Assembly: GCA_937996685.1 (NCBI GenBank)
Contig: CALKUP010000006.1
Span: 64,001 to 128,000 of the forward strand
Source: an uncultured bacterium
Lineage (GTDB): Bacteria > Patescibacteriota > Patescibacteriia > UBA9570 > XYC2-FULL-38-9
Length of the DNA stretch: 64,000 bases
Reading direction: 5' to 3'
Below the pieces are notes generated by a model. The model was not told the origin of the DNA. It saw nothing but the letters and a program-made list of their open reading frames with translations, and did no database searches. The position numbers were made by a program, and so were the translations under genes. This document shows positions 8,071 to 15,011 of the stretch, one piece after another; position 1 is the first letter of the stretch, and the number at the start of each line of letters is the position of its first letter.

Positions 8071-8964
8071 TTAATCAATTTCACCATTTTCTCTCAAAAC
8101 GCGAATCGCATTAAATCTTCTACCCTCATCCACTTTATCCTTAACAATCTCGCGGAGTGCAATAATGGTTTGATTATATGCCAATTCCAACCCCTTATTT
8201 ACAACTTGCATCCATTGATCAAAATCAAATTGCTCAGCTTCAAGCAGTTTTTTGATTATGTCACCAAAATCACGCGGACTAAAACACGAATCCAGAAAAT
8301 GTGTTTCCAAAAATTGCTCGATGTCATCACCAGTACTGATTTTCTTAAGCCATGCAAGGGCAACCTTCTGATTCATGGGCAGATACGAAATTTGCGTTTT
8401 TTCCAACCAGTCGAAATATTCTACAATTTTAGCCTCAATATCTTGCTCAATATAGCCTTTGGCGTGTGCAATTTTGTCATTACGATATGTAATAATCGAC
8501 TTCTTAATACTACGTGCATCAATTTTTGTTAGACCTACAATCTTCAATAAATCGATAATTTCAGTTTCGCCCAAAAAAGCGATGGCATGCGGTGATTCAG
8601 GCGCTAAAATACCCTCTGCCCCATTACGGGGGTTTTTAATAGTTAATGCCAACTCATATTTATCTTTCTCCTCTCTGTAAATTCGCAAAATTTTATACTG
8701 TATGGCGAGCATAAAAAGGAGATGAAATGGCATTACCGCAAAAGGATTCGGTTCAGCTTCGTCTTTATTAAGAGAAGAAAATGCTTCCCATAGGTGATTT
8801 ATATAATCATTTTCCGTAGTGTCTCGACGAATGGGTAGATAGTCAAAAATCTCAGCTCCGATTACTGAATACGAGACATCCTTTCTATTATCCTCTATAG
8901 CAGACTCTCGTATTTGTTCAAGATAATCTTGATGTTTGTAAAAATATTCATCATCTTCTGACAT
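8071..8964 (-). CDS. Hypothetical HEPN-motif protein, possibly an Abi2 (AbiD/AbiF)-like abortive-infection effector, last gene of the type I R-M cluster
   Basis: 297 aa. Rx4-6H motif RNDKIAH in a helical C-terminal half. Position immediately downstream of hsdMS with a 6-nt gap. Low GC like the rest of the island. Confidence 0.45.
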   Translation of the reverse strand: MSEDDEYFYKHQDYLEQIRESAIEDNRKDVSYSVIGAEIFDYLPIRRDTTENDYINHLWEAFSSLNKDEAEPNPFAVMPFHLLFMLAIQYKILRIYREEKDKYELALTIKNPRNGAEGILAPESPHAIAFLGETEIIDLLKIVGLTKIDARSIKKSIITYRNDKIAHAKGYIEQDIEAKIVEYFDWLEKTQISYLPMNQKVALAWLKKISTGDDIEQFLETHFLDSCFSPRDFGDIIKKLLEAEQFDFDQWMQVVNKGLELAYNQTIIALREIVKDKVDEGRRFNAIRVLRENGEID

Positions 8965-8969
8965 AGTAG

Positions 8970-11390
8970 TTACATCCAGAGTTTGGCAATCACGTCCTTG
9001 ATCTTTTGATCGTAAATGACAATGAGTTTTTTGGCAGATTCGACTAGCATACGCTCAACCTTAATCTTCTCTACAATCTGCCCTTGTACTTCGAGGGATG
9101 GGAGAGGTATTTTAAAATTTTTCACACTACCCGCAGCAAGATTGGGCTGTGCAACACCATTTTTAGATTCAAGGATCATATCTGCAAAAAATGACGTCCC
9201 AAAATACACCGCTAGAAAATCTACCATTACTTTTTCTCTGGGACGTACTATGACCAATGATGAAGCGATAGCTCCTTCAGAAAAGTTCTCAACTTTGGCA
9301 TATTTACCTAAAGACCCTCGCAAACATAATAATATATCATCTTTCTGAACCTTACCGCCTCCAAGCAGATCAAATCTGACTCGTGATATGAAATCCATAT
9401 TCTTCATGTCAATTCCATCATCTGTTAAATGGCCCGCATTAATAAATGGAATTCCATTGTCTACCCGGTCAGATTTTGAAGGATAATTTACGCCTCTATC
9501 GCCATTTTCAAAATCACAAATCTCCCCCAACTTCACTTTCTCCCACTCAGGATCGATGTCAATTTTGGGTTTCCAATTTTGGACGATTTGCTTGGCACCG
9601 GCGATGATGCCTGTGTAACCATTCAGCTCCGCTACAATTTGCTCTTGAATTTCGAGAGACGGGAGAGGGATTTGAAATGACTGCAACATTCCAAGCTTGA
9701 TATAAGGCATTGTATTTCCAAGTTTCTGCAACTGCATATTCTCTTTCAGAGAATTATTCAAAACTTGAAAAAGATACTTTACATTTACATTTTTGAAATT
9801 ACTCAAAACATAAGTTCGTTGATATGCGTCAAATTTTCCTTTGTAATATTTCACTGCACCAACATCACCGTTTCCAGCAATAAGTAACGCTTCTGTATCA
9901 AATGAAAATACATCAATAAATGTGTTTTCTTTAGCACAAGTAAAGAATGGGTACTCGCCGTTAGGATTTCCTTCATTTACATCTTTTCTGCCTGTTGTAA
10001 TTTCACAAAGTTCTTTTAACTCCACCATTTGCCATTTGACCTTACTGTAATCAGTAACTACACGATATCTGTCACCTGAAAGGTTATAATCACCGTTTTC
10101 GGCAATTTTTGATTTTTCTACATACATTGCAAGCTTGCTTTCTACTTTTTCACCGGCGTTCCATTTGTTCAAAATATCTAGTGCAGCTGGCAAATCATTT
10201 TTGTTAATTGGCCTCTTGGTTGCACCGAGATCAAGACCATCTTGTTCAATTTTTACGAACAAAATTTCTTGATTTGTTTTTGTTAACTCATTATTAAAAA
10301 GCAAAATACTTGTTTTTACTCCGCTATACGGAGCAAAAACACCTGATGGTAAACTTACAACAGCATATAGACCGTCCTCAATAAGATTTTTTCGAAGTTG
10401 CTTATGAGCCGTACCCGATTGAAAAATAATCCCTTCCGGCACGATAATTCCTGCGCGACCATTTGGGCGCAAGTGATTCATGATGTAATCAACGAATAAC
10501 ACCTCCGAACGGGTAGACTCAATGCTAAATTTTTTGTGGGTTGCTACACCACCTTTCGGTGACATAAACGGCGGATTCGCAAGAATGACATCGAACTTAT
10601 CACCCCATCGATCTTCTTCGCTCAATGAATTATATTGAACAATTTTAGGGTTCTTAAACTGATGTAAATACATATTCACTTGAGCAATACGCACCATGCT
10701 CGGATCAACATCGTATCCCTCAAAATTCTCCATTATTTTACGACGCTGCGATGGTGTTAATGGGGATTCTTTTTTTTTGGGGTCATTTATGCCATCATGC
10801 TGTTCCAAAATATGCTTGTATGAACTCACCAAAAAACCACCTGTTCCACATGCCGGGTCCAGTATCTTATCATCTTTTGTCGGATTAATAACATCCACAA
10901 TAAAATCGATGATATGACGCGGCGTGCGAAACTGCCCAGCATCACCTTGACTCGACATAATCGAAAGCAAATACTCATATGCATTACCAAGCTCTTCTGG
11001 ATGAGAATAATCAAAGAAATCAATCTCTTTCAAGAATAATCCAAGCGTTTCTGGTGAACGATATGGTAAAAATGCTGATTTAAAAATTCCACGGAATAAT
11101 TCTGGGAGTTGTTTCGCCTCGGAAAATTTAAGTAGAGCTTCGGCATATAAATTCATTCGCTCTTGATTCCCAACGCGCGAATCCATGAGCCGCGACCATG
11201 CATATTGCTCAAGCTCACCAATAAAAAAAGAAGGTTCATCTCCTTGTTTAATTGCAGCCTGATCCATATCATCCATGAATTTGTAAATCAAAGCATTGGT
11301 GATTTGCTCGATTTGTGAAGTCGGGTTTGGAACAACACCTACAAGCACTTGCCTTGCAGCGTCTATATGTCTTTTAGTTTCTGAATTCAT
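8970..11390 (-). CDS. hsdMS: Type I restriction-modification methyltransferase fused to the specificity subunit (HsdM-HsdS single polypeptide, two target-recognition domains)
   Basis: N6-adenine methyltransferase motifs DPACGTGGFL (motif I) and NPPF (motif IV). C-terminal 330 aa contain two TRDs, each ending in the conserved HsdS helix LPSLEIQEQIVAELN / LPSLEVQGQIVEKI. Confidence 0.8.
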   Translation of the reverse strand: MNSETKRHIDAARQVLVGVVPNPTSQIEQITNALIYKFMDDMDQAAIKQGDEPSFFIGELEQYAWSRLMDSRVGNQERMNLYAEALLKFSEAKQLPELFRGIFKSAFLPYRSPETLGLFLKEIDFFDYSHPEELGNAYEYLLSIMSSQGDAGQFRTPRHIIDFIVDVINPTKDDKILDPACGTGGFLVSSYKHILEQHDGINDPKKKESPLTPSQRRKIMENFEGYDVDPSMVRIAQVNMYLHQFKNPKIVQYNSLSEEDRWGDKFDVILANPPFMSPKGGVATHKKFSIESTRSEVLFVDYIMNHLRPNGRAGIIVPEGIIFQSGTAHKQLRKNLIEDGLYAVVSLPSGVFAPYSGVKTSILLFNNELTKTNQEILFVKIEQDGLDLGATKRPINKNDLPAALDILNKWNAGEKVESKLAMYVEKSKIAENGDYNLSGDRYRVVTDYSKVKWQMVELKELCEITTGRKDVNEGNPNGEYPFFTCAKENTFIDVFSFDTEALLIAGNGDVGAVKYYKGKFDAYQRTYVLSNFKNVNVKYLFQVLNNSLKENMQLQKLGNTMPYIKLGMLQSFQIPLPSLEIQEQIVAELNGYTGIIAGAKQIVQNWKPKIDIDPEWEKVKLGEICDFENGDRGVNYPSKSDRVDNGIPFINAGHLTDDGIDMKNMDFISRVRFDLLGGGKVQKDDILLCLRGSLGKYAKVENFSEGAIASSLVIVRPREKVMVDFLAVYFGTSFFADMILESKNGVAQPNLAAGSVKNFKIPLPSLEVQGQIVEKIKVERMLVESAKKLIVIYDQKIKDVIAKLWM

Positions 11391-11392
11391 AT

Positions 11393-13993
11393 TTACAAGT
11401 TTGTTATATGATACGCGTAATCATGGATATATTGAGGAACTATTGCCTTATAACCATTCAGCATCTGATATTCCTCAAAATCAAACGTGGACTCTGTGTT
11501 AAATCGTGCTGTTTGTTTGGTTGAGATAATTTCTCGCACTTTTTCATCTGTTGCGTATGCCTTAAAAAACATCTTGACTGGCGCATAATGCTTTTGATCA
11601 ACTGGGTTTACTTCCATGAATTTCTCCCATTCGGACTCTAGTAAGTCTTCTTTATTTTCAAATGATTCTTTTTGCCCAAAAGCGACTTCTAAAAATTCCT
11701 TTACGGAAATTCGACGATCGACATCAAATATTTTACGTATTTTATCGAGATTCAAAAAATGTTTTGGCTTATCAAAAATTTCTTTCTTCGCAAAATCTTC
11801 TGCTTCTTGTAAATCACCATTCTCCCACAATGATTTTAGGACTTCATTACCCACAACATCTTCTTCAACAGCTTGTTTAAAGCCTTCTCGGTCAATGCGC
11901 ATTCCTTCTACGCCAATAGCTATTGCAGCAACAGAAATGACTTTATCATCCATCGCTAAATCAACAGGTCCTTTAAATACTGCATTGCCATTTTCGTCTA
12001 CAAATTCTCCTTGCTGTCCTTCTGAATCAGCATTTTTTTCAGTTGCGGTCACTTTTTTTATTTGTGGCAGTTTGATTTTCTCATCATACGGAAATTCATG
12101 TTCAAAATATTCACAACTGGCAAAGAAATCAAAGAACTTAAATTCGTTCTTATCGACATGAATTTGTTCATTTGTCGTATAATCATGATAATCGAATGAA
12201 TACTTTCTAGTACCGCGGCCTTTCATCTGCACAAAATCAGACGGACTAAACACAGGTCGCATAAGACCAATATTCAACAAATCTGGGCAGTCATACCCTG
12301 TTGTCATCATGCCAACTGTAACCACTACTCGTGTCTTTCCTGAATCATATCCTTCAAGAAATTTCACTGGCCCACCAAGTCTGTTATTCGCAAAATTTAT
12401 TGTCATCTGCTGTGCCTTCTGCACTTGAGATGTCACCTGCACAGCAAAATCAGATTCATTATATTGATCTGGCCATTTTTCATAAGCAAGTCTATTGAGA
12501 ATATTTGCTACACGCGCAGCATGACTTTGTGAAACACAAAAGACAATGGATTTTCCAAAAAGTGGGAGGCCAAATTTTTGACCAATTGGATCCAGAAGAC
12601 CGTTATCAATAAATGCCTTACACATCGCAATATTTGTCTCTTCATTGAAAAATTTCTTTTCATAGTGTCGTTCATCAAACACCTCATTCATTTCTCCGGC
12701 TTCTGTATTTGTAGATACACCGTATCCTTTTTCAGATAGAAGTTCAGTGGTAATTTCTGTACGAGCATCTATGCGCGTTGGCTGAATAAGATGCCCATCT
12801 TTTGAGCCTGTATTTAAATCATATGAAAAAGTAGGAACACCTGATTCACAACCGAAAGTTTTATACGTATCTAAAAGCAAGCGCCGTTCATGCTCCCGCT
12901 GATTATCTAATGTAACGGTATTAACATTCTTCAAATAATTTTTTGGCGTAGCAGTTAAACCAAGTTTATAACCAACAAAATATTCAAACACAGCGCGACT
13001 ATTACCACCTATAGAACGATGAGCTTCATCTGAAATCACTAGTTCAAAATCTGTAGGTGAAAAATCCTTTTTGTATCGGTCGCCTGCGAGAAATGTTTGC
13101 ACTGTAGAAACGACAATGCTCGCATTTTGCCAAGAATCCTTTTTGTTCTTATAAATAACACTTGGAAAATCACGTCCCAAATACTGTGTAAATGCCTTAT
13201 GCGCCTGGTCTTCTAACTCTAATCTATCTACTAAAAATAAAATACGCTGTGCGTTACCAGACTGTAAAAACAATTTTATAGCAGCCGCGGAAATCAGCGT
13301 CTTGCCTGTACCTGTTGCCATCTCAAACAGAAACCGATTATTACCCAACTGAGCAGACTGCTGCAAAGAATTAATCGCTTGCATCTGATACGAACGCAAC
13401 TGTTTAAGGCTATTGTCTTTCAAGAACGCGCTGCGAGTATATTCATTTTGAAATAAAGGATCTTTTTCGAAACCCGGCATCTGAGATTCAATTATATAAT
13501 TCGCTCCTACTTCAATTTGCGCTAACCCTGCGGGGTCTGGTGTATATTTTTCGTACTGTGAAATTGAATCTTGCGTAGGAAAACGCGAAATTGTTTCCGG
13601 ATTACCGTTTTGAGTATCCCAAAAATAATGAATGTTACCATTCGACAAAATCACAAAACGCGCATTTATATTACGCGCATAATTACGGGCCTGTTCCTTT
13701 GCAGAAAGCGGGTCGATTGATTCTTTTTTTGCCTCAACAACAACCAGCGCTCGCCCGTTCTTATCTAGCAATAAAAAATCGATAAATCCTTTTGAAGCAT
13801 TTTCAAAATCATCACCTAACTCGCTAATACTCACTCCTGGCTCCAGCTGAATATTTGCCTTACCATTTTTATCATCAAAAAATCGCCACCCAGATTCTTG
13901 TAGTAGGTTATTTATTTTTATTCTTGCTTGGGCTTCTTTTTTATTTTTCATAACATTATTTTTCTTCATCATCCATTCGTCTTCGTCGATCAT
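11393..13993 (-). CDS. hsdR: Type I restriction enzyme R subunit (HsdR)
   Basis: N-terminal PD-(D/E)xK nuclease (FIDFLLLDKNGRALVVVEAKK). SF2 helicase Walker A (ATGTGKT) and DEAH box (SDEAHRS). The true start is probably 13972 or 13951 (MKNKKEAQARIKINNLLQESGW); the longest ORF overlaps the upstream gene by 38 nt. Confidence 0.85.
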   Translation of the reverse strand: MIDEDEWMMKKNNVMKNKKEAQARIKINNLLQESGWRFFDDKNGKANIQLEPGVSISELGDDFENASKGFIDFLLLDKNGRALVVVEAKKESIDPLSAKEQARNYARNINARFVILSNGNIHYFWDTQNGNPETISRFPTQDSISQYEKYTPDPAGLAQIEVGANYIIESQMPGFEKDPLFQNEYTRSAFLKDNSLKQLRSYQMQAINSLQQSAQLGNNRFLFEMATGTGKTLISAAAIKLFLQSGNAQRILFLVDRLELEDQAHKAFTQYLGRDFPSVIYKNKKDSWQNASIVVSTVQTFLAGDRYKKDFSPTDFELVISDEAHRSIGGNSRAVFEYFVGYKLGLTATPKNYLKNVNTVTLDNQREHERRLLLDTYKTFGCESGVPTFSYDLNTGSKDGHLIQPTRIDARTEITTELLSEKGYGVSTNTEAGEMNEVFDERHYEKKFFNEETNIAMCKAFIDNGLLDPIGQKFGLPLFGKSIVFCVSQSHAARVANILNRLAYEKWPDQYNESDFAVQVTSQVQKAQQMTINFANNRLGGPVKFLEGYDSGKTRVVVTVGMMTTGYDCPDLLNIGLMRPVFSPSDFVQMKGRGTRKYSFDYHDYTTNEQIHVDKNEFKFFDFFASCEYFEHEFPYDEKIKLPQIKKVTATEKNADSEGQQGEFVDENGNAVFKGPVDLAMDDKVISVAAIAIGVEGMRIDREGFKQAVEEDVVGNEVLKSLWENGDLQEAEDFAKKEIFDKPKHFLNLDKIRKIFDVDRRISVKEFLEVAFGQKESFENKEDLLESEWEKFMEVNPVDQKHYAPVKMFFKAYATDEKVREIISTKQTARFNTESTFDFEEYQMLNGYKAIVPQYIHDYAYHITNL

Positions 13994-14552
13994 CTAAAAT
14001 CTCATCCTCAAATTCAAAATAAAGCGTGCCTTGCGGTCGTCTCTGATACCCCAATAACTCCATTGCAAAAGTTGAAAGGCTATTTACCTTATCACCAATT
14101 TTGATTTTATCATTTTCAATAACCTCAGCAACAATGTTTGCATCTCTCGTAAATGTCAGCTTTGAGCCAACAGGGATGCCATATTGATCAAAATGAAACC
14201 GTGAACGTCGCTCTTTCACTTCATCAACCTCTTTCTCTTGCTCTTTCGTTAAACCACTGTCAATTCTTTCTTCTTGAATTTGAACCTTTTTTAACGCCAA
14301 GGCAGCATATTCAGGATTCATCTTAAAAAATTCACGATTATCTCGCGCTCGTCGATCAGCAAAAATAGAATGCAACCACTTTTCTTCTTTCTCGGCATTT
14401 TCAACTACTGCAGCATAATACACTTCAAAAGGAAGCGGGGTGCCAGTTCGATCCAGTTGCTTCATCCGCTCTGTGACATCGCCATGAGTAAAACCAATTT
14501 TAATGTACTCTGGCATTGATTCATTTGTTAATATGTAGACAATCTGATTCAT
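13956..14552 (-). CDS. GIY-YIG nuclease-family protein (T5orf172-like N-domain plus DUF4357-like C-domain)
   Basis: VYILTNESMPEYIKIGFT ... R...N ... EFF motif pattern of the T5orf172/GIY-YIG fold. First gene of the R-M operon. Confidence 0.65.
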   Translation of the reverse strand: MNQIVYILTNESMPEYIKIGFTHGDVTERMKQLDRTGTPLPFEVYYAAVVENAEKEEKWLHSIFADRRARDNREFFKMNPEYAALALKKVQIQEERIDSGLTKEQEKEVDEVKERRSRFHFDQYGIPVGSKLTFTRDANIVAEVIENDKIKIGDKVNSLSTFAMELLGYQRRPQGTLYFEFEDEILDDRRRRMDDEEK

Positions 14553-14789: not shown

Positions 14790-14794
14790 ATATG

Positions 14795-14865
14795 CAGGGG
14801 GTGCAGGAATCGAACCCGCCCAAATGGTTTTGGAGACCAGTGTACTACCGATATACGAACCCCCT
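14795..14865 (-). tRNA. tRNA-Trp (anticodon CCA)
   Basis: Manual fold: acceptor AGGGGGT/ACCCCCT, D-arm GTAT/GTAC, anticodon loop CTCCAAA, T-arm GCGGG-TTCGATT-CCTGC, discriminator G. The 3' CCA is not encoded. Confidence 0.8.
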
Positions 14866-15011
14866 AGAAAAGGGTGGGTCATTTGTTGACGAGATCCGGC
14901 ACATCGACAAAGGTCGGGGGGTGCGGCGGACAGACATCAAAAAAATAACCCAGCTACCCATAGTATACGGAAATATTTGGATTTGTAAAGATGGCGCAGA
15001 ATTGAAAAGAT

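Follow-up and report, generated by a model that had tools for sequence, protein, structure and literature searches.

We analysed a stretch of 64,000 nucleotides (nt) from an uncultured bacterium of the Patescibacteriota (UBA9570; XYC2-FULL-38-9; assembly GCA_937996685.1, contig CALKUP010000006.1, positions 64,001 to 128,000), hereafter the window. The window carries hsdMS, a gene encoding an HsdM-type methyltransferase (M) and a complete HsdS specificity module (S) in one continuous frame, directly downstream of hsdR, which encodes a separate restriction subunit (R). Sequence analysis predicts that the two genes form a natural two-gene Type I-like restriction-modification (R-M) system of the layout known as 'Type IMS', a reading to which we assign a probability of about 0.8. 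The predicted system is an ordinary member of a large, widespread and under-described natural family. Its interest centres on the assembly, with one M for two target-recognition domains (TRDs), and on ORF297, a putative dedicated accessory gene. Coordinates of all features are given in Table 1.

The original prediction, made from the letters of the window, described the hsdMS product as an 806-amino acid (aa) open reading frame (ORF) with a gamma-class N6-adenine methyltransferase bearing the motifs DPACGTGGFL and NPPF. Pfam, PADLOC and the motif positions all agreed with this description. Pfam placed N6_Mtase at residues 132–444 (E = 9e-56), followed by two Methylase_S stretches (residues 451–594 and approximately 615–790; E = 1.6e-39). 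In PADLOC, MTase_I covered residues 2–447 (E = 2e-102; model span 4–456 of 491), and dozens of Specificity_I models matched the remainder, again in two stretches. Among the PDB sequences, the front half matched solved HsdM chains (5YBB, 2OKC, and EcoKI 2Y7C) and the back half solved HsdS chains (1YF2, 5YBB_D, and 3OKG); 1YF2 and 5YBB_D aligned to residues 608–783, i.e., on the side of the second domain, TRD2. Two TRDs in the same frame, each closed by the HsdS helix, had also been predicted and were recovered, with LPSLEIQEQIV at residues 576–586 and LPSLEVQGQIV at residues 763–773 opening conserved regions CR1 and CR2, respectively. The assignment of the TRD-like region to HsdS therefore held with the Pfam, PADLOC, and PDB references alike. 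Motif I, which binds S-adenosylmethionine (AdoMet), precedes catalytic motif IV, and the TRDs are C-terminal, so the order of the elements is that of the gamma class.

An alignment across the M/S junction was made with 36 sequences, the window protein and 35 independent homologs. Eight of the ten residues of motif I (D178, P179, C181, G182, T183, G185, F186, and L187) were invariant in it, as were all four residues of NPPF (N272, P273, P274, and F275). The TRD1 and TRD2 units of hsdMS were 26% identical to each other (E = 2e-12), which points to a true internal duplication of the fold. The AlphaFold2 (AF2) model of the hsdMS monomer had a predicted local distance difference test score (pLDDT) of 79 and a predicted template modelling score (pTM) of 0.50, with a low-confidence linker at residues 444–449, at the M/S junction. 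Two features of a classical Type I enzyme are thus present in hsdMS, the HsdM-type gamma N6-adenine methyltransferase and the TRD-CR-TRD-CR specificity module. A third, distinct M and S polypeptides that assemble as M2S1 (R2M2S1), is not, as M and S form one 806-aa chain.

A similar gene could arise from separate hsdM and hsdS joined by an indel or an assembly error, or as a recent pseudogene-like fusion, and one relative (L026, described below) is indeed split at the same point. Against this, the junction (…GDYNLSGDRYR…KWPMVELGE…; in the window protein YNLSGDRY...KWQMVELKE) was conserved and aligned without gaps in all 36 sequences; its gap-free state in the 35 independent homologs indicates that the continuity is homologous and not an indel artefact. 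The best 120 of at least 8000 matching protein clusters were all fused, with approximately 790–840 aa, 100% query coverage, 57–77% identity, and a domain composition identical to that of the window fusion. The fused frame is common to at least 120 homologs from independent assemblies and at least 70 genomic loci, and fused forms predominate in the clade. We regard the artefact reading as effectively refuted and give it almost no weight, and the HsdM-HsdS fusion in the window gene as confirmed by these sequence comparisons.

A stand-alone upstream HsdR with an SF2 (superfamily 2) helicase, likewise foreseen in the original prediction, was borne out by the Pfam domains HSDR_N_2, ResIII, and Helicase_C. 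The nuclease and motor motifs were all intact (D72...E87-x-K89, Walker A GTGKT, DEAH, TATP, and QMKGRGTR), and the best PDB match was 3H1T, the HsdR of Vibrio vulnificus (E = 1e-31). An HsdR with both a PD-(D/E)xK nuclease and an SF2 motor is thus encoded beside M and S, as expected of Type I. The stop codon of hsdR lies 2 nt ahead of the hsdMS ATG. Its start is ambiguous between Met 1, 8, 9, and 15 (positions 13949–13993); homolog alignments begin at residues 7–20, and a start at Met15 would abolish the overlap with the neighbouring T5orf172 gene (38 nt at the annotated start).

Conservation of the gene pair was followed in a set of 80 related loci, 71 of which were testable for an upstream hsdR; the other nine have under 450 nt of sequence ahead of the MS gene. 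A full-length HsdR homolog (45–77% identity) was present in all 71, located within 150 nt on the same strand in 54 loci, with an insert of approximately 0.4–2 kb in 16, and on the opposite strand in one. This constancy makes hsdR-hsdMS a two-gene cassette that is kept together across many phyla. A second M-like or S-like gene was found neither in the 64-kb window nor within 10 kb on either side in any of the 80 related loci.

A scan of one genome per species gave at least 537 confirmed genomic loci encoding the fusion. Among the loci listed were members of Patescibacteria/CPR (candidate phyla radiation), Bacteroidota, Chloroflexota, Spirochaetota, Planctomycetota, Omnitrophota, Nitrospirota, and Pseudomonadota, as well as one 'uncultured archaeon'. 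The closest relatives of the window R-MS genes came mostly from Patescibacteria/CPR metagenome-assembled genomes (MAGs), and the ORF containing the M module was 750–899 aa long in 74 of the 80 related loci. An exhaustive HMMER search with the M module only was evaluated for its best 150 representatives, 128 of which had a complete M module. These comprised 73 proteins with approximately two TRDs, 33 with approximately one TRD, 15 with a longer extension, and at most 7 free-standing M proteins, i.e., a C-terminal extension past the M module was present in 121 of 128 (~95%). By these counts, fusion is the rule in the nearest M clade of the window gene. The architecture had been called unusual in the original prediction; it is indeed non-textbook, but it is not rare, given the number of loci, the uniformly fused best 120 clusters, and the share of extended proteins in the M clade.

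The Prokaryotic Genome Annotation Pipeline (PGAP) names the relatives merely 'N-6 DNA methylase' and 'DEAD/DEAH box helicase family protein', and our literature search found no description of the natural two-TRD R+MS family. Many putative fused M/S genes are listed in REBASE. Pipelines for annotation and defence finding should treat R together with MS as a full Type I system.

Several natural variants of the layout were identified. In Microgenomates bacterium UTCPR1 (L026:589-3102), Pfam revealed a split form with an M of 451 aa and a two-TRD S of 380 aa; M ends right after the junction motif, here YNLTGERY, and S begins 19 nt further on. Either a genuine fission or an error in the MAG could explain this split. 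Single-TRD fusions were found by Pfam in L025 (667 aa) and L035 (629 aa), and IncF plasmids of Escherichia coli encode a fusion of M to half of S (M~S1/2) of 677 aa with 42.6% identity over residues 1–586. On the E. coli IncFIA/IncFIC plasmid NZ_CP116482.1 (L082:4403-11951), a three-gene cassette adjoining the transfer region consists of a DEAD/DEAH helicase (849 aa), the single-TRD 'N-6 DNA methylase' (677 aa), and a 'TrlF family AAA-like ATPase' (951 aa; AAA_21/SMC_N), and many similar plasmids exist. A literature search on 'TrlF' returned only spectroscopy papers. In an Owenweeksia sp. MAG (L066:9998-14539), the M~S fusion runs on, within an ORF of 1513 aa, into an FRG domain and approximately 10 TPR repeats (Pfam). 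By predicted domain content, one R-linked clade holds M+S, M~S, and M~S1/2 forms, all of which have also been engineered. Split, full-fusion, and half-fusion forms within a single clade linked to EcoAI-like HsdR correspond to the series of intermediates that Roberts and Bower proposed for the evolution of Type I systems.

In the 36-sequence alignment, the M module and both helical spacers were strongly conserved and both TRD slots were hypervariable. The 268 TRDs of 134 family members clustered into 71 types, 18 of which occurred in both slots. The TRD1 type of the window protein was found among relatives 40 times in slot 1 and 4 times in slot 2. In a Cloacimonadota MAG (L040, fusion ORF 440-2944), one TRD type fills both slots, which predicts a palindromic or near-palindromic bipartite target. 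Classical HsdS evolves in just this way, by TRD replacement and slot-swapping, here around a conserved M/helix scaffold. This exchange speaks for DNA reading by both slots; taken alone, it is no proof that an M domain serves each of them.

The same layout is known from engineered proteins. Roberts et al. (2012) removed the frameshift between EcoKI hsdM and hsdS, and the resulting fusion was functional in R-M together with HsdR as its own subunit; 'Type IMS' was defined as HsdM fused to an HsdS with one or two TRDs, plus a separate HsdR (PMC3510504). In vitro, EcoKI MSFusion needed extra free HsdM, and the composition R2 + M + MS was proposed (PMC3510504). With the Sau1 CC398-1 MSfus of Bower et al. 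(2018), both strands of the wild-type motif were methylated in vivo; MSfus together with HsdR cut DNA without added M, and gel filtration hinted at (MSfus)2 (PMC6158711). The window system has the structure so defined, a one-chain HsdM-HsdS and a separate HsdR, and the activity of R + MS is predicted. Like the EcoKI and Sau1 constructs, it has HsdM in frame with a two-TRD HsdS, the C-terminus of M being joined to the N-terminus of TRD1, and HsdR apart. The engineered proteins, which restrict and modify with wild-type bipartite specificity, are laboratory constructs from Type IA and Sau1, whereas the window system is natural and belongs to a clade with fusion as the ancestral or normal state; it also differs from them in its IB-like relatedness and in having only a short M tail. 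A large natural family thus already realises the engineered layout.

The top Foldseek match of the hsdMS model was the crystal structure 7EEW. Its alignment with the family profile runs from the catalytic domain across TRD1 and reaches CR1 (E = 1.7e-37; E = 1.8e-27 with the single sequence). Sequence relatedness is distant. According to the account in PMC12429846, which cites Seo et al. 2022 (Int J Biol Macromol 208:381), 7EEW is the 'minimal intact MTase' (methyltransferase) of V. vulnificus YJ016, in which HsdM is fused to S1/2 and two chains recreate an M2S1-like assembly. As described there, it is a natural single chain from a Type I operon in which an M domain, a TRD, and a CR helix are joined, and in this it is like the window protein. 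Each chain has, however, one TRD and one CR helix, and the dimer reads a palindromic target, so that the stoichiometry is self-consistent. The window chain, with two different TRDs and two CR helices, is not of this type, and dimerisation in the manner of 7EEW fails to balance M against TRD; the relatives with one TRD (L025, L035, and those on E. coli IncF plasmids) belong to the same clade. In the original prediction, Type IIG/ISP enzymes were given as the main known source of fusions, which overlooks both engineered Type IMS proteins (PMC3510504, PMC6158711) and the natural M~S1/2 of 7EEW.

With classical Type I systems, of which IB and EcoAI are the nearest, the window system shares the gamma-class HsdM fold and motifs, the TRD-CR-TRD-CR arrangement, an HsdR with PD-(D/E)xK nuclease and SF2 motor, and TRD shuffling. 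It differs in the union of M and S in one polypeptide, the fixed R-then-MS order, the tight spacing, and scores far under the cut-offs of the curated equivalog models. The best curated model for HsdR was that of the EcoAI/FtnUII family (NCBIfam restrict_EcoAI; 212.7 bits vs. a cut-off of 550), and hsdMS reached 63.8 bits vs. a cut-off of 242.75 with TIGR00497 hsdM (NCBIfam). Missing these models by score indicates a distinct lineage. 3H1T, the best structural match of HsdR, was placed near EcoAI and family IB by its authors (PMC2777439). Judged by the profiles, the R-MS lineage is IB-like, not IB; the closest curated family is EcoAI, whose membership scores are not reached.

The ratio of one methyltransferase to two TRDs is shared with AloI and CjeI (Type IIB/IIG), for which Loenen et al. 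termed it 'a mystery' (PMC3874165). Those enzymes carry the nuclease at the N-terminus of the one chain, lack an ATP motor subunit, and cut at fixed distances on both sides of the site. In contrast, the window protein begins with an HsdM N-domain, and nuclease and motor reside in the separate HsdR. It is not a single-chain Type IIB/IIG enzyme (AloI/CjeI or BcgI-like): residues 1–131 are HsdM N-domain (MTase_I 2–447; the EcoKI M alignment begins at residue 61), the neighbouring HsdR carries a motor, and the PADLOC match to REase_MTase_IIG was confined to the TRD/CR region (residues 600–803). The R-MS family may serve as a simple two-protein model for the one-methyltransferase-per-two-TRDs question posed by AloI and CjeI. 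Type ISP enzymes (LlaGI, LlaBIII) also combine Type I-derived modules in fewer polypeptides, with a gamma methyltransferase followed by a TRD; the window system is not of this type, since R has an ORF of its own and the fusion has two TRDs. Nor is it a MADS (methylation-associated defence system): MAD2 scored 120.8 bits vs. a cut-off of 720 and MAD5 45.9 vs. 400, and no other mad genes were found nearby. The 'HsdMS' of Pseudomonas aeruginosa PAO1, considered as another natural fusion, was rejected; the papers show two genes, PA2735 and PA2734. The 'four types' of Type I loci in a 2025 survey refer to the order of separate genes, not to fusions.

If the Type I mechanism applies, HsdR would act as a nuclease and ATP-driven DNA translocase and the hsdMS chain as an N6-adenine methyltransferase with a complete specificity module. 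TRD1 and TRD2, held apart by the antiparallel CR1 and CR2 helices, would read an asymmetric bipartite target, and the M domain would methylate adenine using AdoMet. At an unmethylated target, HsdR, bound through M, would pull in DNA and cut at a distance. Each chain brings one M for two TRDs, i.e., for two half-sites. The stoichiometry had been called unclear in the original prediction, and this judgement stands, with no rebalancing gene or signal found. A programmed frameshift yielding free M was rejected, since the 60 codons around the junction held no conserved in-frame slippery heptamer in 67 aligned genes. An internal start yielding free S was rejected too: many relatives have Ile or Leu in place of the Met of KWPMV, and no Met stands at the corresponding position of TRD2. 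Given one M per two TRDs and the lack of a second hsdM, a recoding site, or an internal start, the second M probably comes from a second fusion chain, and we infer that the active methylase probably uses two such chains. One would give M and S, and the other would lend its M in trans to the TRD2 side, with its own S idle. The split form L026 and the half-S dimers suggest that, in this clade, M and S are able to pair without a covalent link and to work in trans. A clipped M fragment, as in the engineered fusions, would be an alternative source of the second M. We rank the two-chain complex first, the clipped M second, and a monomer methylating one strand third.

The clipped form would arise if proteolysis or an early end of translation near the junction freed M, giving M1 + MS1 and an M2S1-like core as proposed for the engineered EcoKI fusion. 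The requirement of the EcoKI MS fusion for added HsdM in vitro (PMC3510504), a clipped fragment of ~73 kDa (M and half of TRD1) that co-purified with Sau1 MSfus (PMC6158711), the low-confidence linker of the model exactly at the junction, and the natural break of L026 exactly after the junction motif are all in its favour. However, the junctions of the 67 genes show neither a conserved slippery heptamer nor a stop-prone feature, and uncontrolled proteolysis is unlikely to persist across hundreds of lineages; we hold this reading to be possible but unlikely. In the monomer reading, one MS chain would methylate the TRD1-side adenine only and TRD2 would only bind, a logic nearer to Type ISP or Type III. 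The strict coding ratio of one M to two TRDs agrees with it, as does the lack of a further hsdM in the 80 loci and of a frameshift site or conserved internal start at the junction that could shift the ratio, and AloI and CjeI have the same puzzling 1RM:2TRD ratio (PMC3874165). Yet in vivo methylation by engineered MS fusions with two TRDs extended to both strands (PMC6158711), and HsdR is of the standard bidirectional Type I type, for which one-strand methylation would leave one daughter duplex fully unmodified after replication. The free movement of TRD types between slots and the conservation of both CR1 and CR2 also fit two equivalent half-sites with an M for each, without being proof. We consider this monomer distinctly improbable. 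Still harder to accept is a degenerate or repurposed system, in which MS would be an orphan epigenetic methyltransferase beside an inactive HsdR. Regulatory roles are known for some Type I loci (PMC5358918), but here the nuclease and motor motifs of HsdR are all intact, the R-MS linkage is kept in every testable locus, TRD diversification is typical of defence-driven selection, and the block lies in a defence-island context.

Some points weigh against a natural Type IMS system working through two chains. The pTM of the AF2 monomer leaves the position of M relative to S undefined in the model, and the two-chain assembly is deduced. The curated Type I models for both proteins were missed by the scores given above. 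Leaving half of the S modules idle looks wasteful, yet this is the dominant form, and something else may operate. A non-canonical assembly, e.g., (MS)2R2 with the spare S holding a second DNA site or sensing methylation in trans, or a monomer methylating one strand, is a tentative minority view, in which ORF297 might be a third component, either a back-up effector of the PrrC or HEPN kind or a protein that regulates the complex.

Table 1. Features of the R-MS locus and its surroundings in the window.
Feature	Position (nt)	Strand	Description
hsdMS	8970..11390	(-)	806 aa, ATG start; in-frame HsdM-type methyltransferase and full HsdS module (ORF, Pfam, PADLOC, homologs)
M module, aa 1–447	10050..11390	(-)	N-terminal and catalytic domains of HsdM, then a short tail with YNLSGDRY at its end
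AdoMet-binding motif I, aa 178–187	10830..10859	(-)	DPACGTGGFL
Catalytic motif IV, aa 272–275	10566..10577	(-)	NPPF
Junction motif	10065..10088	(-)	YNLSGDRY, end of M tail
TRD1, ~aa 451–575	9666..10040	(-)	Hypervariable (Pfam Methylase_S, alignment)
Conserved region 1 (CR1), ~aa 576–612	9555..9665	(-)	LPSLEIQEQIV and long helix (model helix 579–605)
TRD2, ~aa 613–762	9105..9554	(-)	Hypervariable (second Methylase_S stretch, PDB HsdS chains, alignment)
Conserved region 2 (CR2), aa 763–806	8973..9104	(-)	LPSLEVQGQIV and C-terminal helix (model helix 766–805)
hsdR	11393..13993	(-)	866 aa; N-terminal PD-(D/E)xK nuclease, SF2 motor, and C-terminal region (Pfam, motifs)
ORF297	8071..8964	(-)	297 aa, all-helical; starts 5 nt past hsdMS stop
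T5orf172 (GIY-YIG-like)/PDC-S57 gene	13956..14552	(-)	Pfam T5orf172 (E = 1e-15); PADLOC PDC-S57 (E = 2e-61); head of low-GC block
tRNA-Trp(CCA)	14794..14865	(-)	Borders low-GC block

ORF297 is a candidate new accessory gene. Its product had no match in Pfam, NCBIfam, PADLOC, or PHROGs, and its 198 homologs are all annotated as 'hypothetical'. An ORF297 homolog was found directly downstream of hsdMS in 15 of the 54 loci having an ORF in that slot, and all four homologs on long contigs lie downstream of hsdR-hsdMS, two directly and two with one interposed gene. ORF297 therefore appears to be a recurrent dedicated accessory, occurring essentially only downstream of the R-MS cassette. The AF2 model of the protein was all-helical (pLDDT 88, pTM 0.82). 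Invariant residues include H81, R161, and H167, and the R161-x5-H167 arrangement within 'RNDKIAHAKG' may recall the Rx4-6H motif of HEPN proteins; this motif is the sole source of the HEPN idea. For an RNase within a Type I locus there is a precedent, PrrC. Assignment of ORF297 to HEPN gained no support from Foldseek against PDB (best E = 0.33), a profile search against PDB sequences (empty), or PHROGs (none). In the ORF297 family, a faint Pfam match to HEPN_RiboL-PSP was seen in 2 of 38 members (E = 0.012).

In the related loci (L001-L080) without ORF297, the slot downstream of hsdMS was occupied by diverse, unrelated defence genes, among them GajA, SduA/Shedu, Mrr_cat, DUF4145, DUF3800, AbiEii-like AAA_21, PDC-M50A, a CBASS-type cyclase, and C5 methylases. 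A universal third gene of the cassette was rejected in view of this heterogeneity. The R-MS cassette appears to reside habitually in defence islands. None of the 80 related loci had the T5orf172/PDC-S57 gene that lies upstream of hsdR. This gene is therefore probably a separate defence gene of the island and not a conserved part of the system.

Elsewhere in the window (positions 15000–64000), seven of the ten largest ORFs tested had no NCBIfam match at E<=1e-10. The four genes of the R-MS region form a low-GC block of 6.6 kb (8.0–14.6 kb; ~37–39% GC vs. 42–45% in the flanks) directly downstream of tRNA-Trp. No attachment (att) repeat flanking the block was found, only short repeats at chance level, and no integrase. 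The block looks like a small defence island, with tRNA-Trp as its probable insertion site.

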